A stretch of DNA of 64,000 nucleotides, taken from positions 18,357 through 82,356 of the IMG/VR virus record IMGVR_UViG_2974717242_000001. One strand, given 5' to 3'. Of the stretch, positions 17,664 through 57,029 are shown piece after piece (position 1 is the stretch's first letter; every line of letters begins with the position of its first letter). Origin of the DNA: Bongovirus reindeer (Duplodnaviria; Heunggongvirae; Uroviricota; Caudoviricetes; Vilmaviridae). The translations under genes and the position numbers were made by a program. Under the pieces are notes generated by a model. It ran no database searches. It saw only the letters and a program-made list of their open reading frames with translations, and was not told the DNA's origin.

Positions 17664-17986
17664 AGCTCGCGGTATTGCGCCCGGTAGACATCGGCGGGCA
17701 TCGACCACGACTCATCCAGGTCGGGGTCGAGAACCACGTAGTCGCCGGGGCGCAGAATGTGGGTGTCCCGGCCAGGCTCATCGACGGCCATGTACGCCAG
17801 CGAGCCATCCTCGTTGAACTTCGCAACGACGTTCATCGGGACGCCGCGTCGCTCAGCCTCCTGGGCGACGATGTAGGAGACGCCCGCGAAGTTGCGGCCG
17901 GTCACCTTAACACCCAGCGAGTACTTCAGGTCGTAGGGCTGCACCCGTTTGATTCCAGTGCCCTTGATCGCGTTGTTGGTGCTCAT
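17660..17986 (-). CDS. hypothetical protein
   Basis: 108 aa, ATGA overlap with upstream gene. Confidence 0.6.
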   Translation of the reverse strand: MSTNNAIKGTGIKRVQPYDLKYSLGVKVTGRNFAGVSYIVAQEAERRGVPMNVVAKFNEDGSLAYMAVDEPGRDTHILRPGDYVVLDPDLDESWSMPADVYRAQYREL

Positions 17987-18780
17987 AGCATTCCCTTCGT
18001 TTTCCAGTGGTTGTAGTGCATGCCGATCAGCCAGTTGTCCAGCTGCTCGTAGTCGGGATGATCAGGGAGGCAGGAGGCCTCCATCGACTTGCGCAACAAG
18101 TCGGTGCGCCACTCGAGGACGCTGAGCGCCTCCTGCAGGTTGTACTGGCCGTCACGAACCGCCAGTAGGTAGTCGCGGTGATAGTCGAGCATCGGAAGGT
18201 GAATTTCACCCTCCGTCATGAGCTGCTCGCCCTGAATGGCCAGCCGCGTCGCGTGGTACATCATCTTCGTGTCGTAGCCGCACTTCTCCACCAGCTCGGG
18301 ACGGTTCGTGTGCTTGCGGCCACGAAGCCCCTGCGCCCGCTCACGCTGAGCGACAAGGTATCCAATGAACCGGCCCCCGGCCTGCTTCGACAGGAACAAG
18401 TCACGATTGCCGACCAGCTCGGCACCCGAGTCGTTCATGAAGTAGATGTGATGCCGAGGGGCGAACAGCGGTATCAGCACAGTCGGATTGCCTTGCGCGG
18501 CAAGGCGGGCCCACTTCTGCAGGCTGTAGATCACCTGATCAGTGTCGCCGGGGCCCGACCGCACACCCTCAGGGATGCGGGTGCCATCAGCATGCCAACG
18601 GTCCTGATACTGCTCGAACTGCCTGGTGCCGATCACGCACTCCGGAGGGGCGATGCACATGCCCATCTCGTCGTTGTCGTCGGCACCCACAGTCACGCCA
18701 TGCAGACGAGAACCGACCTCAGTCTTGTAGATCAGGTTCTCCTGGGCGATCTTCCGATGCCAGGGGCTGTTGTGGCTCAC
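17983..18780 (-). CDS. Pol-beta superfamily nucleotidyltransferase
   Basis: GS-x9-DDND motif (TEVGSRLHGVTVGADDNDEMG) near N-terminus, 265 aa. Strong RBS AAGGAG before GTG start. Confidence 0.55.
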   Translation of the reverse strand: MSHNSPWHRKIAQENLIYKTEVGSRLHGVTVGADDNDEMGMCIAPPECVIGTRQFEQYQDRWHADGTRIPEGVRSGPGDTDQVIYSLQKWARLAAQGNPTVLIPLFAPRHHIYFMNDSGAELVGNRDLFLSKQAGGRFIGYLVAQRERAQGLRGRKHTNRPELVEKCGYDTKMMYHATRLAIQGEQLMTEGEIHLPMLDYHRDYLLAVRDGQYNLQEALSVLEWRTDLLRKSMEASCLPDHPDYEQLDNWLIGMHYNHWKTKGML

Positions 18781-23190: not shown

Positions 23191-23501
23191 CAGCGATTGA
23201 GCAGCAGCTGACAGCCATCCTGGTGGCCGACGAAGGCGACGCCGTCTACTGCCTGCGGACGGAGCCCGATGTGGAGATCGGCGGCTTCAAGCATGTCGAT
23301 GTCGAAGAGGGCGAGGACCGGCGCTGGGTGCGTGGCGACATGGTCATCGTGCAGCACGTCGAGTCGGGTCGGTACTTCGCGTTCGACTACGACCACGGCC
23401 TGACTGAGTATCAGGATGACGAGGTGTTCCCCGATTCGGTGCGGGAGGTCGAGAAGACCACCAAGACGGTCGAGGTGACGATCTGGAAGCGGGTTAAGTG
23501 A
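23187..23501 (+). CDS. hypothetical protein
   Basis: GTGA overlap start. Track ORF starts further upstream at 23076. Confidence 0.5.
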   Translation: MTAIEQQLTAILVADEGDAVYCLRTEPDVEIGGFKHVDVEEGEDRRWVRGDMVIVQHVESGRYFAFDYDHGLTEYQDDEVFPDSVREVEKTTKTVEVTIWKRVK

Positions 23502-24091
23502 GCGGTGAGCACACCGGGTGCACCGATTCGGACGACACCACCTATGTGGTGTGTGAGGACGAGGACGGCACCGATGTCATCCGGTATTTCTTCCGTGGCT
23601 ACATTGATGACTCGACGGTTTCCCCACTGATCGAGACGTTCTACTACTGGGATGGGCATTACCCCGGTTCCCGGTGGGAGATCGACATCAATTCACCTGG
23701 TGGGGAGATCTTCCCGTCTATCGCGGTGTTCGGCGCTCTGCGTAGGTACAGCCAGCGAATGGGTGGGGCCCACCACATCACCACCCGCGCGTCTGGCTTG
23801 GCCGCTTCTGGTGGCGAGTTGATGCTGCAGGCTGGCGATCATCGTGTCGCTGGCCTGATGGACGCGATCATGATCCATGAACCGTTGTGCTCGTACGAGG
23901 ATCGCGCGGTCACGCAGATTCGTGACGATCTGGCTCGTGCTGAAGAGTGGACTCGCCGACTAGCGAAGGTTCACGCGGAACGGTCCAGCATCGATGAGGA
24001 AACGTTCCTCGCGAAGCTCAGGCTGGGGGACTGGTGGATGTATGCGGATGAGGCGCTGGAGCTGGGCTTCATTGATGAGGTGCTGCCGTGA
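23498..24091 (+). CDS. ClpP-like serine peptidase (S14 family)
   Basis: GTGA overlap. INSPGGEI and GLAASGGELM motifs correspond to ClpP SPGG and catalytic Ser region. 197 aa. Confidence 0.65.
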   Translation: MSGEHTGCTDSDDTTYVVCEDEDGTDVIRYFFRGYIDDSTVSPLIETFYYWDGHYPGSRWEIDINSPGGEIFPSIAVFGALRRYSQRMGGAHHITTRASGLAASGGELMLQAGDHRVAGLMDAIMIHEPLCSYEDRAVTQIRDDLARAEEWTRRLAKVHAERSSIDEETFLAKLRLGDWWMYADEALELGFIDEVLP

Positions 24092-37929: not shown

Positions 37930-38004
37930 ATGGGCGTAGCTGACAGGAAAGCAGCGGTCTCCAAAGCCGTGATGATGCAGGTTCGAATCCTGCCGCCCGT
38001 GCCA
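37930..38004 (+). tRNA. tRNA-Trp(CCA)
   Basis: Acceptor ATGGGCG/CGCCCGT, T-arm GCAGGTTCGAATCCTGC, anticodon loop CTCCAAA, encoded CCA end. D-stem weak. Confidence 0.55.
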
Positions 38005-38081
38005 CGTTCGATGTTCGGTGGTGACCGAACGCCGAACATGTTGGTTGAGAATTAAATAGTGGTAGTACAAGTAAGTTTCGA

Positions 38082-38451
38082 GGGGCTGTACTGGTTTTCG
38101 ATTACGAACCGAGTCCATGGAAGCGTGCCGGGAAGATACGCCCGTAACAGTTCAACCTTAATAAGCGCCGCATTTGTTGACGCTGATTACGCCGTAGCTG
38201 CGTGATCCGGTGGGGTAGAACGGTTTACCCGTTCCGTCTACCAATCCACCGTCGTCAATACGGGGACCGCAGGTACACCCAAGCATCTGCCAAACTGCTA
38301 GGGCCGTCCGGTCACGAGGACGTTAATCCCGTGTTCTTGCCCGTGGCAGATTGTGTCGCTATGCGAGGGGTGAAAATACAGAGGCACTACGCACGTAGAA
38401 GAATGAGTACAGAGAACGTAAGACGCGGGTTCGATTCCCGCCAGCTCCACC
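38082..38451 (+). ncRNA. ssrA: tmRNA (ssrA)
   Basis: 5' GGGGCTGTACTGGTTTTCGATTAC matches the tmRNA 5' consensus GGGGCUGAUUCUGGAUUCGAC. 3' end GACGCGGGTTCGATTCCCGCCAGCTCCACC is near-identical to the E. coli ssrA 3' end. G3-U70 in acceptor. Internal tag frame 38167-38205 encodes AAFVDADYAVAA-stop. Confidence 0.8.
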
Positions 38452-38692
38452 TGGGCCTGGGTTCTGGGTTCGAATCCCAGTGTGATTGAAGTGGATTCGC
38501 GGTCTGCAGCCGCGACTACGCTCCGGTGGGTAGCTCCCAGCCGCGTTCGCATGGTGTAATTGGCAAGCGCAGGGCCTGTTAAACCGGTTTCCCATCTCCG
38601 ACCAAAGGATGGGTGGTGGAAGACGAACTGGGTCTTAGGCAACCCCGTTCAGTCCTCGGCGTCCCAGCCCGCCGTCACCCGACTGGGCTAAG

Positions 38693-38767
38693 TGGGGTAT
38701 AGCCACAATGGCAGTGGCACTGGCCTGTTAAGCCGGATGAGTGTTGGTTCGAGTCCAGCTACCCTAG
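38693..38767 (+). tRNA. tRNA-Asn(GTT)
   Basis: Acceptor TGGGGTA/TACCCTA, D-stem GCCA/TGGC, anticodon stem CTGGC/GCCGG with loop CTGTTAA, T-arm GTTGGTTCGAGTCCAGC. No encoded CCA. Confidence 0.5.
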
Positions 38768-39678
38768 CGAGTGGAAGGTCGTCGGTTCGATTCCGACAGC
38801 GGAACAAACGGGCCGCTTAGCTCAGTGGCAGAGCATCCACGTTAACAACATTTGGGGCATGGCCCATAAGCTGAGGTGACTCAGTGAAAGGTGATGGTGA
38901 CATCTCGCCGCCCGCAAGGGTTCCCCATGCAATCCAAACCTTAAGCAGTTCCCGTTGGGGGCTGCCAGGTTGCGAGTTCATCGTGTGACCAACGCCAAGT
39001 GGTGAGGTCGGGTTCGGTACGTGCCGAAGGGCCAGCGAGTAACGGATGAGCAGCCTGTGGAATGGAAGGAACTTAAGTCAGAGCCTTGGCGGGTGACGGC
39101 GGGTTCCATGACCGATCTCGCGTGGACGACGGTTCACAATGCGGTTGAGGGAGAGAGTGAGTAGCCCGCCAGGCCAAAGCTCGAGAGGCGTGAAGCATTC
39201 TGTGCCCCAAAAGGGTTCGGAACTTCATGGGGAAGCACGTCTCTAGTCACAACTACCATGCTATTGGTTAGCAAACTGTCATTGAACACAGTTGTAGAGG
39301 TTCGACTCCTCGCAAAGCAAAAGCCTTTCCCTGCCGATGAGCAAAAGCGCCTTAATCCCCGACTGGGAGCAGAATCGGGGCAGGACGAGCCCGCAAGGCG
39401 GATCCTGTTTGTAGACAAGTAGTGCAGCCATGGGACGGCCATCCTAACGGCGAATCAAAAGTCGCAGAGTAGCTGTCGGTATGACGAGTGGTTCACGTTA
39501 CGGACCAGGCGTTGCACGTACACAGGGGACTGTGTGGACAAGTCGGGAATCCATAATCCGACGAAAGCGTGTGGTCGAGCGGTTTAGTCTCTAGCCCGCT
39601 CAACAATCGGAATGTGCGTCTAATGGCAAGGCGTGGGGGCACCCAGATGCAGGTTCGAATCCTGACTTTCCGGCATTT

Positions 39679-39755
39679 CCCGTGGCGAATTGGCGATCAC
39701 CGGTGACTGTAAATCACCCGCTTCGGCTGTGTAGGTTCGACTCCTGCCTGCGGGA
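39679..39755 (+). tRNA. tRNA-Tyr(GTA)-like
   Basis: Acceptor CCCGTGG/CTGCGGG (C1 start), perfect anticodon stem GGTGA/TCACC with loop CTGTAAA, 12-nt variable arm, T-arm GTAGGTTCGACTCCTGC. D-arm irregular. Confidence 0.4.
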
Positions 39756-39901
39756 CGACGAGACTGACGGGGCACAGTAGGTTCCAGGCTTGCGGCTGAA
39801 TCGAACACCCCCGCCCGCAAGGCCAGTCTCAATGACAACGCCTCGAAAACGTTGTCATCCGCTAGTGGAGAGGTGAGCGGACTGAATTGCCTTTCCAGCA
39901 T

Positions 39902-39973
39902 TGCCTGCTGGTGTAAATGACAGCACACGAAGCTCTGACCTTCGTAGTTCAGGTTTGAATCCTGGGCGGGCAT
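39902..39973 (+). tRNA. tRNA-Gln(CTG)
   Basis: Acceptor TGCCTGC/GCGGGCA (U1-A72 as in bacterial tRNA-Gln), D-stem GTGT/GCAC, anticodon stem CGAAG/CTTCG with loop CTCTGAC, T-arm TCAGGTTTGAATCCTGG. Confidence 0.55.
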
Positions 39974-40016
39974 CGAGATGGGTTGTCGGTATACCTCCAT
40001 GAAGGGAACCGTCACT

Positions 40017-40090
40017 CAGTCTGAGGTGTAAGTGGTTTGCATGGCCGGTTTGGATCCGGGCGGTTCGAGGTTCGAGTCCTCGCAGACTGA
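40017..40090 (+). tRNA. tRNA-Pro(TGG)
   Basis: Perfect acceptor CAGTCTG/CAGACTG (C1 start), anticodon loop TTTGGAT, perfect T-arm CGAGGTTCGAGTCCTCG. Confidence 0.5.
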
Positions 40091-40244
40091 CGTACCCGTT
40101 GGTGGATCGGATAACCACCCGACCTGATCTCAGGTTCCGTTAAGCAAATGAGATCGTGCCCCGTCGCCGTGGGATATGTCAGAAAAATCACGGGATCCCA
40201 TTGACCCGAGGGATTACGGCCTGATCAGCCGATAGGGTCAACCT

Positions 40245-40327
40245 GGAGGGATCCGCTGAATGGTCGGCAACCGGCGTCGAATACCGGGGCTGGGTGAAAC
40301 CAGGGGGTTCGATTCCTCATCCCTCCG
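40245..40327 (+). tRNA. tRNA-Ser(CGA), type II
   Basis: Acceptor GGAGGGA/TCCCTCC, anticodon loop GTCGAAT, long variable arm hairpin CTGG-GTGAAA-CCAG, T-loop TTCGATT. 83 nt. Confidence 0.55.
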
Positions 40328-40525
40328 CTCTGGAGAGTGGAACCATCTAGGTGGATGGCCGCGATTGCTAATCGCGGGGCAGCGTAACGCTGTGTGGATC
40401 GTGCCCACTCCTCTCCGCAATGAGAATCTAGCTGGCCAGCCATCAGGGTGTCGGTTCAACTCCGACAGGGAAAACCTGTGATTCTCAGGGGGTGCGGTTG
40501 GAGTCATGACCGTCGCATCCCATAT

Positions 40526-40598
40526 CGGGTTGTAGCTCAATTGGAAGAGCGCTGGCTTGAAACCCCAGAGGCTTCTGGTTCGAATCCAGGCATCCCGG
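40526..40598 (+). tRNA. tRNA-Phe(GAA)
   Basis: Canonical D-arm TAGCTCAATTGGAAGAGC, anticodon loop TTGAAAC, T-arm TCTGGTTCGAATCCAGG, acceptor CGGGTTG/CATCCCG. Confidence 0.6.
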
Positions 40599-40612
40599 CG
40601 CTAGGAGGCACT

Positions 40613-40804
40613 ATGTCGAACATGATGCGGATGCTCCGCAGGCCCCAGTGTAATCGGGGGTGTTGCGGTGGCGAACGTGAGCGTGAGGCCCAGCGGCCAG
40701 CCGAGAGGCGGCGAGTGCAGGCCGAGATCGACATGGAGACCTACGACATGACGCCAGACGCGGAATACGCGTGGCTGGAGTACATGTCAGGCATTGCGCG
40801 GTAG
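40613..40804 (+). CDS. small Cys/Arg-rich protein
   Basis: RBS CTAGGAGGC before ATG 40613. 63 aa, MSNMMRMLRRPQCNRGCCGG. Embedded between tRNAs. Track ORF 40448-40804 over-extends it. Confidence 0.5.
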   Translation: MSNMMRMLRRPQCNRGCCGGEREREAQRPAERRRVQAEIDMETYDMTPDAEYAWLEYMSGIAR

Positions 40805-40866
40805 TGAAATCGGGATCACACTGGTCTCATAAGCCAGCATTACGAGTTCGAGTCTCGTCTGCGCAA
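40795..40866 (+). tRNA. tRNA-Met(CAT)
   Basis: Acceptor TGCGCGG/CTGCGCA, D-arm TAGTGAAATCGGGATCAC, anticodon stem CTGGT/GCCAG with loop CTCATAA, T-arm ACGAGTTCGAGTCTCGT. Overlaps last codons of preceding CDS. Confidence 0.6.
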
Positions 40867-40947
40867 CGACGTATCAGGTTCTGCAAGGGGTAGGTAAAAA
40901 GGGTCCACGCCCCAGTGGCCCAAACCTGGTGCATTGAAAGGAAATAC

Positions 40948-41106
40948 ATGGCTGAGAAGCTGAAGTCCGGTGTTGCCGCCGCTCCGATTGTGAAGGCGGT
41001 CAATGATCTGATCGACGCGAGCGATGTCGATGTCGCCGCCCTGGCTGCGACTGTCGCGGATCTGGAGACGCGTGTGGAGGCGCTGGAGGCGGCTGCGGAG
41101 GCGTGA
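40948..41106 (+). CDS. small coiled-coil protein
   Basis: RBS GAAAGGAAA before ATG 40948, 52 aa, Ala-rich. Confidence 0.45.
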   Translation: MAEKLKSGVAAAPIVKAVNDLIDASDVDVAALAATVADLETRVEALEAAAEA

Positions 41107-41141
41107 TCGCCCGTCCTGGCCATGACGCGAAACTGGCCGAT

Positions 41142-41213
41142 CCCGCCGCAGCACGACGGACGTGCATCTCGCTACGAACGAGGGGGCTGCTGGTTCGAAT
41201 CCAGTCGGTGGGT
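41142..41213 (+). tRNA. tRNA-Arg(ACG)
   Basis: Acceptor CCCGCCG/CGGTGGG (C1 start), D-stem GCAC/GTGC, anticodon stem TCTCG/CGAGG with loop CTACGAA, T-arm GCTGGTTCGAATCCAGT. Confidence 0.55.
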
Positions 41214-41218
41214 CTATA

Positions 41219-41290
41219 CCCCTTGTGGCGTAATGGTTAGCGCAGCGGTCTGTGAAGCCGTCCATCACGGTTCGACTCCGTGCAGGGGGA
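41219..41290 (+). tRNA. tRNA-His(GTG)
   Basis: Acceptor CCCCTTG/CAGGGGG, D-arm GCGTAATGGTTAGCGC, anticodon stem GCGGT/GCCGT with loop CTGTGAA, perfect T-arm CACGGTTCGACTCCGTG. Confidence 0.55.
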
Positions 41291-41294
41291 CTTT

Positions 41295-41366
41295 GGCGAG
41301 GTGGCCGAGTTAGTTAGGCAGCAGGCTGCAACCCTGTTCACGCCGGGGCAGATCCGGCTCTCGTCT
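41295..41366 (+). tRNA. tRNA-Cys(GCA)-like
   Basis: Acceptor GGCGAGG/TCTCGTC, anticodon stem GCAGG/CCTGT with loop CTGCAAC. Atypical T-loop GGCAGAT in stem GCCGG/CCGGC. Confidence 0.4.
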
Positions 41367-41380
41367 CGAAGGGGTCACCC

Positions 41381-41638
41381 ATGGGTGTGTTGCTCTCCAG
41401 GGCCGAGCTGGAGCGCCTCAAGGAGGCTGCGGCATGGTTGGATCAGCAGCCGGAAGTTAAGGCGCGAGAGAGGCAGCTAGCGGCCATTCTGGAGCACGAG
41501 ATGCGCCTGGCCGGATGGGATGGTACTGGGGATCTTCGGCCGTGGTTCACGCGGTGCATGGAGATCAACCTCGCTTTGGATCAGACGCAGGGTCGACCGC
41601 CGTCGATTCAGAACTGGCCAGGCTATGAGGCTCGCTAG
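41381..41638 (+). CDS. hypothetical protein
   Basis: RBS GAAGGGG before ATG, 85 aa. 3' end overlaps the following tRNA. Confidence 0.5.
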   Translation: MGVLLSRAELERLKEAAAWLDQQPEVKARERQLAAILEHEMRLAGWDGTGDLRPWFTRCMEINLALDQTQGRPPSIQNWPGYEAR

Positions 41639-41702
41639 GCAAACTGGCAAAGCCGCCTGATTCAGAATCAGGTGCTTCCGAGTTCGACTCTCGGGCGAGC
41701 TA
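41629..41702 (+). tRNA. tRNA with CAG anticodon (Leu by anticodon) but short variable loop
   Basis: Acceptor GGCTCGC/GCGAGCT, anticodon stem CCTGA/TCAGG with loop TTCAGAA, perfect T-arm CCGAGTTCGACTCTCGG, variable loop only 4 nt. Confidence 0.45.
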
Positions 41703-41763
41703 CGTTTCACGCGGAGGTCTACGGGCTGATGCGGTTATTACTGGTCTGACGACCTGGAGATGA

Positions 41764-42726
<963 letters not shown>

Positions 42727-42733
42727 TCCCATC

Positions 42734-42806
42734 GGGACGTTGGTGAAACGGCTATCACCGCACGCTCTTAACGTGCCAGTTCTGGGTTCGAATCCCAGGC
42801 GTCCCA
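42734..42806 (+). tRNA. tRNA-Lys(CTT)
   Basis: Acceptor GGGACGT/GCGTCCC, anticodon stem GCACG/CGTGC with loop CTCTTAA, perfect T-arm CTGGGTTCGAATCCCAG. Confidence 0.55.
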
Positions 42807-42811
42807 CTTAA

Positions 42812-42885
42812 GCCTGTTTAGCTCAGTTGGTAAGAGCGCCTGCCTGATACGCAGGAGGTCGGTGGTTCAATCCCATCAACAGGTA
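42812..42885 (+). tRNA. tRNA-Ile(GAT)
   Basis: Canonical: acceptor GCCTGTT/AACAGGT, D-arm TAGCTCAGTTGGTAAGAGC, anticodon stem CCTGC/GCAGG with loop CTGATAC, T-arm GGTGGTTCAATCCCATC. Confidence 0.7.
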
Positions 42886-42897
42886 CGCAGTAACTCT

Positions 42898-42972
42898 GGG
42901 GTATTCATCTAGTCTGGCTTAGGATGCGACGCTTCCAACGTCGTCACGAGGGTTCGAATCCTTCATACCTCA
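42898..42972 (+). tRNA. tRNA-Gly(TCC)
   Basis: Acceptor GGGGTAT/ATACCTC, D-stem CATC/GATG, perfect anticodon stem CGACG/CGTCG with loop CTTCCAA, T-arm GAGGGTTCGAATCCTTC. Confidence 0.6.
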
Positions 42973-42978
42973 CTTTGC

Positions 42979-43049
42979 GCCGCTTTCGTCCAATGGTAGG
43001 GCACCTGGCTTACATCCAGATGACGGGAGTTCGATTCTCTCAAGCGGTA
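42979..43049 (+). tRNA. tRNA-Val(TAC)
   Basis: Acceptor GCCGCTT/AAGCGGT, D-loop AATGGTA, anticodon loop CTTACAT, T-arm GGGAGTTCGATTCTCTC. Confidence 0.5.
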
Positions 43050-43109
43050 CGTGGCCTGACGAGGCACCGGGGACTGGGTACCCGGCTTAGCGGCGAACAC
43101 CCACCCAAT

Positions 43110-43184
43110 GCCGATATAGCTCAATGGCTAGAGCCCTGCCTTAGTAACGCAGTGATCTCAGTTCGATTCTGAGTTTCGGCTCCA
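43110..43184 (+). tRNA. tRNA with encoded CCA, anticodon loop TTAGTAA (AGT, Thr?) isotype uncertain
   Basis: Canonical D-arm TAGCTCAATGGCTAGAGC, perfect T-arm CTCAGTTCGATTCTGAG, 3' TCCA. Anticodon stem has one C-C mismatch so the loop register is ambiguous. Confidence 0.5.
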
Positions 43185-43228
43185 CGGGCCACTTGCACGA
43201 GCACCCGTCCAAAACGCTTATGCACCAT

Positions 43229-43302
43229 GGGGGCGCATGTTCCAAGGTGGCGACCGACCCTTGCAAGGTTGGTGTGGTCGCGTTCGATTCGCACCGTCTC
43301 CA
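43229..43302 (+). tRNA. tRNA-Ala(TGC)-like with degenerate T-stem
   Basis: Acceptor GGGGGCG/CGTCTCC including G3-U70 Ala identity pair, anticodon stem CGACC/GGTTG with loop CTTGCAA. T-loop TTCGATT but only 3-bp T-stem, poor D-stem. Confidence 0.4.
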
Positions 43303-43356
43303 CGCTCAGTATGCAGATCGTAGGCCAATGGGCTATGAAATGCTTACTCGCACAAT

Positions 43357-43429
43357 CCCGATGTCATCTAGTGGCCTAGGATGCCGCCCTGTCGAGGCGG
43401 TCACGCGAGTTCAAATCTCGTCGTCGGGA
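43357..43429 (+). tRNA. tRNA-Asp(GTC)
   Basis: Acceptor CCCGATG/CGTCGGG (C1 start), D-stem CATC/GATG, perfect anticodon stem CCGCC/GGCGG with loop CTGTCGA, T-arm GCGAGTTCAAATCTCGT. Confidence 0.55.
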
Positions 43430-43479
43430 CTACGACCTTAGTGCAGCTTGGAGGTCTTTAAATATGAGGCTGCACGCCT

Positions 43480-43550
43480 GGTTCTATGGTGTAGTGGCAG
43501 CACGCGACCCTCTCAAGGTCTAGGCGGGAGTTCAATTCTCCCTAGAACTA
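43480..43550 (+). tRNA. tRNA-Glu(CTC)
   Basis: Acceptor GGTTCTA/TAGAACT, D-arm GTGTAGTGGCAGCAC, anticodon loop CTCTCAA, perfect T-arm GGGAGTTCAATTCTCCC. Confidence 0.55.
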
Positions 43551-43554
43551 CATT

Positions 43555-43712: not shown

Positions 43713-44930
43713 ATGGCACCCACTACGCTAGCTCCGAAGGTGGTCAGCTTCGCCTCGGAGATCGATCAGGCGACGATTGACCAGGCGATGCAGATCGCTG
43801 AGATGCCGTTCATTCACCCACATTTGGCGTTGATGCCGGATGCTCATTCGGGCAAGGGTTCTGCGGTGGGGACTGTCATTCCCACGGTGGGTGCGGTGAT
43901 TCCGGCCGCTGTGGGTGTGGACATCGGCTGCGGCATGATCGCGGTGAGGACGCGGTTCACTCTCTCGGATCTGCAGATCAAGCATCATGTCAACCTGCTC
44001 GCCGAGATTCCGCTGGCGTCGCTGCGCCGCCAGATCGAGGAAGCGATCCCGCTGTCACCGGGCAACTACAACTCGACGTTGTCGAAGTTCGCGTTTACCC
44101 GCAAGAAGCATGAGGAGCTGATCCAGCTTCAGCAGGAGCTGGATGTCGACCTGTCCCACAGTCCGAAGTGGATGGAGCAGCTGGGTTCCCTCGGCGGCGG
44201 CAACCACTTCATCGAGCTGTGCCTGGACGAGGACGACACGGTGTGGCTGTTCCTGCATTCGGGTTCGCGGGGTGTGGGCAACAAGATCGCCCAGGTCCAC
44301 ATTAAGGCGGCGCAGGCATTCTGTGATCTCTACGGTGAGAAGCTGCCGAACCGCGACCTGGCGTACCTGGTGGAGAACACGTACGAGTTCGACCGGTATA
44401 TCAGGGAGCTGGAGTGGGCCCAGCGGTTCGCCTACCTGAACCGTGCGGAGATGATGGACCGCTTCGTCCACGTGTTCGCGTGGTGGCTGGGCGTGGAGGC
44501 TCAGCGTGTCGAGGTGGAGCGCATCAACTGCCACCACAACTACACGGTGCCGACCGTGAATGATGGCGAGCGGGTGTGGTTGACCCGCAAGGGTGCCATC
44601 GATGCGTCGGAGGGCAAGCTGGGGGTGATTCCCGGCTCGATGGGCACCAGGTCGTATGTGGTGCGGGGGAAGGGCTGCAGCGCTGGTTTGCTCTCTGCCC
44701 CTCATGGGGCGGGTCGCCGGTACTCCCGCACGAAGGCCAAGGAACTGTTCACCAAGGATGACTTGGCTGAGCAGATGCAGGGCATCGAGTGGCGCGAGGA
44801 CATCGCCGACAAGCTGGTCGATGAGATTCCGTCCTCGTACAAAGACATCGACCAGGTGATGGCTGATGCGGAGCCGTTGGTTGAGGTGGTGACCACCTTG
44901 CGCCAAGTCCTGAACGTCAAGGGTACGTAG
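43713..44930 (+). CDS. rtcB: RtcB-family RNA ligase
   Basis: RBS GAAGGGA before ATG 43713. ALMPDAHSGKGS, GGGNHFIEL, HSGSRGVG and SAPHGAGR are hallmark RtcB motifs. 405 aa. Confidence 0.8.
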   Translation: MAPTTLAPKVVSFASEIDQATIDQAMQIAEMPFIHPHLALMPDAHSGKGSAVGTVIPTVGAVIPAAVGVDIGCGMIAVRTRFTLSDLQIKHHVNLLAEIPLASLRRQIEEAIPLSPGNYNSTLSKFAFTRKKHEELIQLQQELDVDLSHSPKWMEQLGSLGGGNHFIELCLDEDDTVWLFLHSGSRGVGNKIAQVHIKAAQAFCDLYGEKLPNRDLAYLVENTYEFDRYIRELEWAQRFAYLNRAEMMDRFVHVFAWWLGVEAQRVEVERINCHHNYTVPTVNDGERVWLTRKGAIDASEGKLGVIPGSMGTRSYVVRGKGCSAGLLSAPHGAGRRYSRTKAKELFTKDDLAEQMQGIEWREDIADKLVDEIPSSYKDIDQVMADAEPLVEVVTTLRQVLNVKGT

Positions 44931-50423: not shown

Positions 50424-50653
50424 CCGAGTTCTTCACTGTCATTGCCATGGTGGATGGGTGGCCCACATCGGACACTGACGTGTCTACGAACTCTCACCGG
50501 AGTGTTCGGTCATACAAGTCGGAGAAGATCGCTCAGCGGGCCATTCAGACGGCAGCACAGGATCCTCGTGTGACGTATCGGATCTTGCACACGGTGGTGG
50601 ATCCGGACATGACTGCCACATCGCGGTTCACTGACTTTGTGTGGTGCGTGTGA
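50420..50653 (+). CDS. hypothetical protein
   Basis: ATGA overlap, 77 aa. Confidence 0.5.
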   Translation: MTEFFTVIAMVDGWPTSDTDVSTNSHRSVRSYKSEKIAQRAIQTAAQDPRVTYRILHTVVDPDMTATSRFTDFVWCV

Positions 50654-50782
50654 GTCGCCGCGAGTTGGCGTTCTCGGTCACGCTGGATGACTGCCGGGTT
50701 GATACGTTCCGCGCTGTCGAGCGTGACATGTGGCCAGTGAATCTCAAGACCGAGGTTCGAGAGAATGGAAAGTGGGTAGTAG

Positions 50783-51328
50783 ATGGCGGTCACTGAAGCT
50801 CCGTTCGACCAGAACGGCAACATGATCTCGTACCCCGGTGAGATCACCGGCTGGGAGTGGTATCTCGATGATGAGGGCAACCAGCGGTACCGCGCCATCC
50901 GCGCCGAGATGACCCCAATGGAGCCGTTTTACGGTGAGATGCGTGTCGTTGGCATCGAGACCGGCCGCAGCGCGAAGCGTCTCGTCCTGGAGGACATCAA
51001 CACCGGCAAGACGTACCCGTTGTTTGTCGCGGACATCGTGAAGCTGCTGCAGGACGCTGGCACCGTGCTCACGGGGACATGGGGTGCGTCTAAGCGTGGC
51101 CAGAACTACGGCATCAAGCGAGTGGCTCCAGGGCCAGCGCAAGAGCGGCTCGAACAGATGAGGCCACTGCTGGGCAAGCAGGTGAAGGTCACCCTGGACA
51201 ACGAGGATCCGAAGGCCATCGCCACCGGCAAGCTGCTGAGCTTCAGTGACTGTGGTGATGTCGTGGTCGAGGACGATATGGGGTTCGTGCATTACTGCTG
51301 GCCGAACCTGAAGACGGAGGAGATCTGA
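50783..51328 (+). CDS. hypothetical protein
   Basis: 181 aa. A 48-aa GTGA-coupled ORF (50650-50796) may precede it. Confidence 0.55.
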   Translation: MAVTEAPFDQNGNMISYPGEITGWEWYLDDEGNQRYRAIRAEMTPMEPFYGEMRVVGIETGRSAKRLVLEDINTGKTYPLFVADIVKLLQDAGTVLTGTWGASKRGQNYGIKRVAPGPAQERLEQMRPLLGKQVKVTLDNEDPKAIATGKLLSFSDCGDVVVEDDMGFVHYCWPNLKTEEI

Positions 51329-56237: not shown

Positions 56238-56520
56238 TCACGCGCGTCCACGCGCATCCTCCTCGGCCTCATCAGCGGCCCGACCACTCGCGTAGTACGC
56301 CATCCAGTCGGTCAGGTCACGCACAAGATCCGGCACCTTCTGGGCGAGAATCTCGATGGGCTCGCCAACGTTCTGGGGCCTCCCGCGCTCGATGATTCGG
56401 CCATTGTCAGCCACACGCTCAACGGTGAGCGTGCGCTGAATGATCAGCCGGTCGAGTCGACCCCCGACCGTCCTCCTCTGGTTCCACGTTGTATGCGGTG
56501 ATCTTCCGGTCGAACGCCAT
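56238..56520 (-). pseudogene. frameshifted small gene (G5 homopolymer)
   Basis: ATG 56520 with canonical leader RBS. Frame stops after 33 aa. The +1 frame is open for 62 further protein-like aa. Removing one G from run 56461-56465 restores a 95-aa ORF. Confidence 0.4.
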
Positions 56521-56610
56521 GTTCTTCATTCCCTTCTGTCGTGTTGTGGTGCTGAGTACACCAAAGGGGGCACCGACCAATGCCGATGTCCCCGAGTTGC
56601 GCTCAGAACC

Positions 56611-56679
56611 CTAGAACTGTTTGAACAGCAGGATGATGGTCGCCAGCACTACAGCCAGTGACCAGTAAGCAGCCGTCAT
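56611..56679 (-). CDS. tiny hydrophobic peptide (22 aa)
   Basis: RBS GAAGGAGGG, ATGA overlap with upstream gene stop. MTAAYWSLAVVLATIILLFKQF. Confidence 0.3.
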   Translation of the reverse strand: MTAAYWSLAVVLATIILLFKQF

Positions 56680-57029
56680 ACAGCCCTCCTTCGTTCCCAG
56701 CCGCGCCGCGCCCACTGCGTTTGAGACCACTTGTTGCGCATGATGGTCTCGGCCATGCGTTGCAGCTGGCTCGGGTTCGCGTAGTACTCCTGAGAGTTCA
56801 ACGCGTCAGCGAGACCCGCGTGATAGCCACGGTTGTGGTCCACCACGTCGAACCCCATGCCGTCAGCCGTGAATGGGATGCCCTCCCAGTCCGGTGGCCA
56901 CATGATGACCGTCTCCCAGTAGTCGAACGACCCACCGAGGTACGCGGTGGACACTTGGACCACGCCGACCCCGTCAATGACGAAGCCTTGCATGACTTGA
57001 CGGTTCGGCCGAAACATGGTGTCACTCAT
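56676..57029 (-). CDS. hypothetical protein
   Basis: Start at MSDTMF with leader RBS. Track ORF extended to 57137. Confidence 0.5.
   Translation of the reverse strand: MSDTMFRPNRQVMQGFVIDGVGVVQVSTAYLGGSFDYWETVIMWPPDWEGIPFTADGMGFDVVDHNRGYHAGLADALNSQEYYANPSQLQRMAETIMRNKWSQTQWARRGWERRRAV

Follow-up and report, generated by a model that had tools for sequence, protein, structure and literature searches.

A 370-nt element on the + strand of the genome of Mycobacterium phage Reindeer (genus Bongovirus; cluster M) is very probably, at roughly 85% by our own estimate, a functional one-piece transfer-messenger RNA (tmRNA; ssrA) gene, the orthologue of the tmRNA annotated in phages Bongo, PegLeg and Rey. 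The element occupies positions 38082-38451 of the window, the 64,000-nt stretch of phage DNA analysed here. Judged from its sequence and from the alignment of its relatives, the sequence and structure hallmarks of a one-piece tmRNA are present and kept by selection, with the third and fourth pseudoknots as candidates only. The Reindeer genome has 82,356 bp and the isolation host is M. smegmatis mc2 155. A 371-nt query matched the deposited record (NC_053516.1 / MT658803.1) with 100% identity at 56438-56808, the record coordinate being the window coordinate + 18356.

The first-pass annotation of this DNA, made from the letters alone, had placed a phage-encoded tmRNA within a tRNA array and had staked this reading on a covariance-model match. 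The Rfam tmRNA model RF00023 matched the window at 38082-38452 over its full length (model positions 1-374 of 374), with 95.8 bits against a gathering score of 47 (E = 4.3e-36), and all 12 related phage and prophage loci that were compared have an RF00023 match (85-118 bits). The start and the Escherichia coli-like 3' end are as they had been read: the element starts GGGGCTGTACTGGTTTTCGATTAC at 38082 and ends ...GACGCGGGTTCGATTCCCGCCAGCTCCACC at 38451, and 28 of its last 30 nt are identical to ssrA of E. coli K-12, both mismatches lying in the T-loop. With its relaxed threshold (-ps), ARAGORN reported a tmRNA at exactly 38082-38451, with a tag that is outside the ARAGORN internal list.

The RNA, numbered from window position 38082, has the expected parts in order, all on the + strand. 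The 5' strand of the acceptor stem (G1-G7; 38082-38088) pairs with 38442-38448 (C361-C367) to form 7 bp and is invariant in the 12 phage tmRNAs of the alignment described below (alignment A1); the 3' strand (CAGCUCC), the discriminator A368 and C369-C370 fill 38442-38451 in the sequence and in A1. The G3-U acceptor pair that the first-pass annotation had pointed out is G3·U365, invariant in 12/12 aligned phage tmRNAs; a G3·U pair is the identity element for alanyl-tRNA synthetase. The gene ends ...A-C-C and the next base, 38452 (position 371), is T/U, so that the terminal A of CCA is unencoded and must be added post-transcriptionally. The 5' strand of helix H2 (H2a 21-25, H2c 32-37, H2d 42-47) lies at 38102-38128 and pairs with 38391-38421, where A1 places the 3' strand (positions 310-340), H2a as 21-25/336-340, H2c as 32-37/322-329 and H2d as 42-47/310-315; positions 306-320 (CTACGCACGTAGAAG) are invariant in the 12 phage tmRNAs. 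The first pseudoknot, PK1, at 38129-38153, consists of stem 1 (S1; 48-51/60-63) and stem 2 (S2; 54, 55, 57 and 58 with 72, 71, 70 and 69). The tag frame (38167-38205) overlaps hairpin H5 (38185-38207; 104-111/119-126, 8 bp), which holds the last tag codons and, in its 3' strand, the stop codon. PK2 (38208-38264) is formed by S1, 127-142/153-170, and by S2, in which loop 147-151 pairs with 179-183. The long imperfect hairpin that had been noticed after the stop codon at 38207-38253 is real and corresponds to PK2 stem 1, not to H5. Beyond it lie a variable zone in which PK3 is expected (38269-38333), a candidate PK4 (38339-38387; S1 258-261/287-290, S2 272-276/302-306) and the T-arm (38425-38441), with stem 344-348/356-360 and loop UUCGAUU.

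This structure was tested comparatively. The homologous region was collected from 12 further phages and prophages, and A1 comprises 12 sequences, namely Reindeer and 11 relatives. The tested structure included H1, H2a/c/d, PK1, H5, PK2 and the T-arm, with the pseudoknots explicit; as controls, the 3' partners were moved by 1-3 columns (slide control) and the columns were shuffled 500 times. In A1, 92.6% of the cells were paired, compared with 33-47% after sliding, and 20 pairs had changed on both sides, compared with 4-8; none of the 500 shuffles equalled the real alignment in paired fraction, in number of double changes or in covariation score. At least one compensatory pair occurs in H2a, H2c, H5, the T-arm and every helix of PK1 and PK2; the acceptor stem and H2d do not vary. 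Specifically, H2a, H2c and H2d are 92-100% paired, with seven double-change pairs in H2 (two in H2a and four in H2c); PK1 has 96-98% of its cells paired, with one compensatory pair in S1 and two in S2 (A-U to C-G in three sequences); H5 is 90.6% paired, with two double-change pairs; and the T-arm is 100% paired, with two compensatory pairs. In PK2, S1 has several compensatory pairs (for example A-U in five sequences and U-A in five), and S2 is 90% paired, with one. For the PK4 module, shared by four sequences that represent two independent lineages only, 94.4% of the cells were paired, compared with 33-61% after sliding, and each helix has one compensatory pair; we tentatively propose the candidate PK4 pairing on this basis.

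The pseudoknot domain itself (38262-38392, positions 181-311) is mosaic. Its PK4 module is 90% identical to that of the M. abscessus prophage prophiGD54-2 and ~80% identical to that of the cluster V phage Wildcat, and it is unrelated to the module of the closest relatives, Bongo and the other M1 phages, which suggests recombination within the tmRNA gene. Relatives of the central module were not found among plasmids, and among phages only prophiGD54-2 was found, for the PK4 part; Reindeer positions ~181-250 had no match in phage or plasmid records. A scan of IMG/VR returned five contigs, four of which are known phages and one a new relative with a different module type. In tmRNAs generally, no parts vary more, or can be dispensed with more readily, than PK2-PK4.

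For comparison with the hosts, we scanned a genome collection with the mycobacterial tag region, which yielded 120 loci and, from these, 112 complete tmRNAs of Mycobacterium, Mycolicibacterium, Rhodococcus, Nocardia and relatives. These host tmRNAs are 367-373 nt long, carry only the tags ADSHQRDYALAA or ADSNQRDYALAA and are 79-99% identical to one another; the M. smegmatis tmRNA has 369 nt, four pseudoknots and the tag ADSNQRDYALAA (PMC6133939). The Reindeer tmRNA has the same architecture, nearly the same length (370 vs 369 nt) and a 12-residue tag, and it shares with M. smegmatis and other Mycobacteriales the acceptor stem, the T-loop, the AATAAGC|GCC context and tag residues A1, D7, Y8, A9, A11 and A12. 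It differs in a shorter PK1, in PK2-PK4 of unrelated sequence, in the N-terminal half of the tag and in Val at position -3. Its identity to any of the 112 host tmRNAs is only 54-59%, and the gene is thus no recent capture. Only 27 of the 112 host genes encode the full CCA (85 do not), and the absence of its terminal A from the Reindeer gene is therefore normal.

The identity that is retained is unevenly distributed. Measured on 20 host sequences, as the fraction of them that agrees with Reindeer, it is 0.91 in the acceptor stem and T-arm, 0.95 and 0.85 in H2d, 0.72 in the second half of the tag and 0.69 in PK1, as opposed to 0.39 in the first half of the tag and 0.29-0.46 in PK2-PK4; by this measure, identity with the hosts concentrates where host factors bind. 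The phage tmRNAs are 56-80% identical to one another, whereas those of the hosts are 79-99% identical across a bacterial order, and the divergence of the phage molecules is concentrated in PK2-PK4 and in the N-terminal half of the tag.

Among the host factors, SmpB is encoded next to host ssrA (PF01668, E = 9e-62). A profile of 40 host SmpBs searched against the 1227 six-frame open reading frames (>=40 aa) of the 82,356-bp phage genome gave a best E of 4.3, and tblastn for SmpB gave a best E of 0.76. In view of these negative searches, the phage tmRNA must use host SmpB, and its host-like tRNA-like domain (TLD) fits this dependence. The same dependence would suit an inhibitor or decoy that titrates host SmpB or blocks host trans-translation, and a precedent exists in phage DS6A, the TLD-only RNA of which inhibits endogenous tmRNA in E. 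coli. The DS6A gene is, like that of Reindeer, a phage-borne tmRNA relative in a mycobacteriophage; however, it lacks a tag frame and pseudoknots and acts as an inhibitor, whereas the Reindeer gene is complete. A decoy would have no use for PK1, for a host-like resume context or for a complete mRNA-like domain whose in-frame tag ends in a stop codon, all of which are found family-wide, and we rejected the SmpB-decoy reading, which we consider very unlikely, on the conserved complete mRNA-like domain and tag.

Integration provides a further reason for a phage to carry ssrA sequence, as a host fragment that serves as, or derives from, an attachment site. Phages of cluster K1 use the tmRNA gene of M. 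smegmatis as their integration site, and ssrA 3' ends are common attachment sites of islands and phages. However, the Reindeer gene is complete rather than a 3' fragment, is far from identical to any of the host tmRNAs and lies in a tRNA array ~13 kb from the integrase gene. Its completeness, low host identity and distance from the integrase effectively refute the attachment-site reading, to which we attach a negligible probability.

The tag frame at 38167-38205 reads GCC GCA TTT GTT GAC GCT GAT TAC GCC GTA GCT GCG TGA and encodes AAFVDADYAVAA*, with 12 sense codons from the resume codon GCC (38167-38169; positions 86-88) to the stop codon UGA (38203-38205; positions 122-124). The resume codon is placed at 38167 by the alignment to the Rfam model, by ARAGORN (-ps) and by the host-like AATAAGC|GCC context; hence all 12 residues would be template-encoded and the full addition would be (A)AAFVDADYAVAA. 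The first-pass annotation had the end of the frame right, from GAT TAC to TGA, and its peptide one Ala short, its notation implying a resume codon one codon further downstream. The DYA(L/V)AA ending that it likened to both mycobacterial and E. coli tags does share D, Y, A, A and A with the host tags, but the E. coli tag ends NYALAA, not DYALAA.

The same tag, with an identical open reading frame, is present in Bongo, SlimJimmy and SirSheldon, and the frame is intact, with 12 codons and a stop, in 11/11 homologues read from cluster M phages and M. abscessus prophages. Across eight M. smegmatis cluster M phages, every tag frame has 12 codons followed by UGA, and eight tag columns vary, five of them at codon position 3 (four synonymous) and none at position 1. 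These synonymous third-position changes suggest, as supportive evidence from a small sample, that the tag is decoded and that the peptide is still constrained.

Several observations weigh against a functional tmRNA with an ordinary proteolysis tag. ARAGORN, which the first-pass annotation had proposed as a check, reported no tmRNA in the whole window or in a 1-kb sub-window under its default settings, and the exact gene that it recovered under -ps was flagged 'tmRNAp'; because -ps recovers the gene, the default miss is a threshold effect. Minimum free energy folding of the single sequence gave z = -0.69, a value that is uninformative for a pseudoknotted RNA, and two-pass folding for pseudoknots exposed none, as nested alternatives won. 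A scan for promoters and terminators found no consensus nearby, mycobacterial promoters being poorly covered by the scan, and the literature searched contained no expression, charging or tagging data for any cluster M tmRNA. The PK3 zone has no alignable relative and hence no comparative support; single-sequence enumeration of H-type pseudoknots there gave two candidates (188-192/205-209 with 197-204/215-222, and 224-228/237-241 with 232-235/249-252), and these do not rise above shuffled sequences, with a chain score of -20.1 vs -17.6 ± 5.6 for 100 dinucleotide shuffles (z = -0.45). Thus, of the PK1-PK4 architecture that had been anticipated, PK1 and PK2 stand on compensatory changes and PK4 stands tentatively; the status of PK3 leaves the tmRNA identification intact. 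Finally, position -3 of the Reindeer tag is Val, vs an invariant Leu in the 112 host tags, and the sister M2 phages end in ...VGA or ...VGV, so that proteolytic targeting is not secure.

An inherited gene that is decaying and no longer functional could account for an ARAGORN score below the default threshold, for the 'tmRNAp' flag, for the unencoded terminal A and for a one-base insertion in the D-loop analogue, where Reindeer has one extra U relative to its sister phages (UUUU vs UUU). However, compensatory changes preserve the helices, the tag frame is unbroken and the same as in Bongo, the Rfam score is double the gathering score and lies among those of the relatives that ARAGORN does call, most host genes likewise lack an encoded CCA, and conservation and variation are distributed along the molecule in line with the functional map of a tmRNA. 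A relic is, in our view, very improbable; the pseudogene reading was rejected on the compensatory changes, the intact tag frame and the Rfam score.

The gene could alternatively be functional and yet selected only for the release of stalled ribosomes, with a tag that does not act, or has ceased to act, as a Clp degron. What most bacteria tested need from their tmRNA is the release of ribosomes rather than tagging, and the tag C-terminus drifts in cluster M, with ...AVAA (Reindeer, subcluster M1), ...AVGA (Rey, GenevaB15, Nanosmite) and ...AVGV (MrMagoo, Estes), whereas the terminus ...YALAA is invariant in the 112 host tags; the low host identity of the N-terminal half of the tag points the same way. 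In the GA- and GV-ending sister phages, the degron part of the tag seems not to share the constraint that holds in the hosts. Reindeer, however, keeps D-Y-A-x-A-A with a conservative Leu-to-Val change, its family has the synonymous third-position changes that suggest constraint on the peptide, and the phage has a ClpP-family gene of its own (PF00574, E = 3e-18). We therefore regard rescue without proteolysis as distinctly unlikely for this phage. The ClpP-family gene, gp60, lies at 23498-24091 (+) and is distinct from the head maturation protease.

A tmRNA in this position is ordinary for cluster M and is already described in sister phages. It is annotated at the same position in Bongo (gene 92) and Rey (gene 105), and tmRNAs are also annotated in PegLeg (gp91), GenevaB15, Aziz, three M. 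abscessus prophages, cluster V phages and Kumao. The tmRNA, RtcB and tRNA sets of cluster M were reportedly described by Pope et al. in 2014 (J Virol 88:2461), and the idea of translation rescue or takeover in this cluster is said to have been proposed there already. A tmRNA census of 2014 includes only cluster C phages, Wildcat, Bacillus phage G and DS6A (PMC4131195). Morgado and Vicente (2018) described tmRNA genes, together with a structured RNA of ~430 nt, within the tRNA arrays of mycobacteria and mycobacteriophages, and considered the presence of rescue factors there (PMC5966550).

Reindeer shares with Bongo, PegLeg and Rey the Trp-tmRNA-Asn locus and the arrangement of RtcB and tRNA array, and with Bongo also the genus and the tag. 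The 5' third and the 3' end of the gene are ~94% identical to these relatives, and the match to the M1 phages, at ~94% identity, spans 67% of its length; it differs from the Bongo tmRNA in having 370 nt instead of 403 nt and a replaced central pseudoknot domain. Mycobacteriophages of cluster V (Wildcat) and cluster C (Bxz1 group), as well as Kumao, likewise have phage-borne, one-piece tmRNAs, which are listed on the tmRNA Website, those of Wildcat and cluster C also lying within tRNA arrays. In Wildcat, the PK4 module and the 3' end are ~80% identical to Reindeer; for this group of tmRNAs, global identity is about 56-59%, and the tags are much longer (22 aa in Wildcat, AVDTDVDFAMWEAELASDLVAA; 31 aa in Kumao). 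The cluster C tmRNAs gave no BLAST match to the Reindeer gene.

In the Reindeer record, the interval from tRNA-Trp (gene 93) to tRNA-Asn (gene 94) is empty, because the standard finder, ARAGORN with default settings, scores the tmRNA gene just below its threshold. Nothing is annotated under the match in 20 of the 40 matching phage records, Reindeer included. Among 13 family members, the six called by default ARAGORN are all annotated and six of the seven missed are unannotated, the exception being Bongo, which is missed and yet annotated as a tmRNA. The missed members are Bongo, Nanosmite, MrMagoo, Estes, SlimJimmy and SirSheldon, with 98-112 bits against the Rfam model, in addition to Reindeer. 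The joint genome announcement of Estes and Aziz mentions a tmRNA gene as being 'in Aziz' (PMC7953290), and Estes has an RF00023 match of 99.3 bits, although this wording implies a tmRNA only in its sibling. Pipelines that use ARAGORN alone systematically miss the cluster M tmRNA lineage. The practical value of the present finding is thus one of annotation: the gene in Reindeer can now be annotated exactly (record 56438-56807, tag AAFVDADYAVAA), and an Rfam/Infernal pass would repair the gaps elsewhere.

The tmRNA gene lies at the head of a tRNA array of 20 genes, all on the + strand at 37930-43551 (ARAGORN default). Its upstream neighbour is tRNA-Trp(cca) at 37930-38004 (+), called by ARAGORN and annotated in the record, and the remaining 19 tRNA genes, from tRNA-Asn to tRNA-Glu, extend over 38693-43551 (+; ARAGORN and Rfam tRNA matches). 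The RtcB RNA ligase (gp117; annotated 'tRNA splicing ligase') follows at 43713-44930 (+), 5.3 kb downstream of the tmRNA (PF01139, E = 2e-108). The large tRNA set and the RtcB ligase of which the first-pass annotation had made much are thus both borne out, and the order tRNA-Trp, tmRNA, tRNA-Asn is common to Reindeer, Bongo and Rey.

The 240-nt spacer between the tmRNA and tRNA-Asn (38453-38692, +) contains tRNA-like debris, namely a T-arm-like hairpin, CTGGGTTCGAATCCCAG, at ~38465-38481, almost directly 3' of the tmRNA end, and CCTGTTAAACC at ~38570-38590, which resembles the anticodon arm of tRNA-Asn. No tRNA was called in this spacer by ARAGORN (even with -ps) or Rfam, and the spacer length varies widely across cluster M phages. 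A sub-threshold match to YrlA (Y RNA-like) at 38761-38861 (+; 31.9 bits vs a cut-off of 69, E = 1e-4 in a 1.4-kb search) begins within the 3' end of tRNA-Asn; it could be a chance match or a diverged tRNA-like Y RNA, and a diverged Y RNA beside RtcB would be of interest, if true.

Several further features of the region bear on its annotation. A full-length GOLLD RNA, unannotated in the Reindeer record, is located at 39183-39597 (+), with gp95 and tRNA-Tyr as its neighbours and ~730 nt downstream of the tmRNA (RF02032, 206 bits vs a cut-off of 150), and GOLLD is found at the same place in 8 of 12 related loci (182-216 bits). The structured RNA of ~430 nt reported in PMC5966550 is probably this same element; GOLLD is known in horizontally acquired mycobacterial tRNA clusters, where it is thought to be phage-derived (PMC6582537). 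Within the array, tRNA-Phe(gaa) at 40526-40599 (+), found by ARAGORN and Rfam (58.2 bits), is unannotated and overlain by the hypothetical coding sequence gp101 (40448-40804); the record further lacks tRNA-Leu(cag) at 41629-41703, which ARAGORN alone called, and it lists tRNA-Pro two times (genes 98 and 99). Elsewhere in the window, gp49 (17983-18780, -), annotated as 'tRNA nucleotidyltransferase', matches RlaP, a Pol-beta-family nucleotidyltransferase of RNA-repair pathways (PF10127, E = 5e-28), and the 50-aa 'RF-1 domain' gp131 and overlapping gp132 (50644-51328, +) had no Pfam match at E <= 0.01.

From established trans-translation biology, a course of action can be proposed for the Reindeer tmRNA. 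The RNA would be transcribed together with the tRNA array in lytic growth, its ends would be trimmed as those of a tRNA are, and a CCA-adding enzyme would complete the 3' CCA. Host alanyl-tRNA synthetase would charge it with alanine via G3·U, and host SmpB and EF-Tu would bind it and allow its entry into ribosomes stalled on broken or stop-less mRNAs. Translation would resume at GCC (38167), append (A)AAFVDADYAVAA and end at UGA, freeing the ribosome. The ending ...YAVAA resembles the host degron ...YALAA, and the tagged products would therefore probably be handed to Clp proteases. For alanylation, SmpB binding and the tagging of stalled chains, the conservation of the parts in contact with host factors offers indirect support. 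Ordinary trans-translation with host SmpB, alanyl-tRNA synthetase and Clp proteases in lytic growth is thus the likely role. The benefit to the phage would be more ribosome-rescue capacity while RNA is damaged or degraded in the infected cell, a likely advantage, given its genomic context, that fits the full tRNA set and the RtcB repair ligase nearby. The dedicated translation-rescue or takeover module that the first-pass annotation had envisaged is plausible in the same light.

To conclude, this analysis adds little new biology in itself, as phage tmRNAs in mycobacteriophage tRNA arrays, those of cluster M included, have already been described. Beyond annotation, the divergence of the phage tmRNAs and the variation of their C-terminal degron are of possible interest to the trans-translation field. 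More speculatively, and although we consider it unlikely, the cluster M tmRNA, as a long-independent and fast-evolving lineage that is leaving the host degron, may be a phage-controlled device for ribosome release, not for tagging towards proteolysis, within a counter-defence RNA-repair kit. If so, this kit would consist of the tmRNA, a complete tRNA set, RtcB, the RlaP-family nucleotidyltransferase and possibly the phage ClpP-like protease, and it would keep translation going while host nucleases cut tRNAs and mRNAs.

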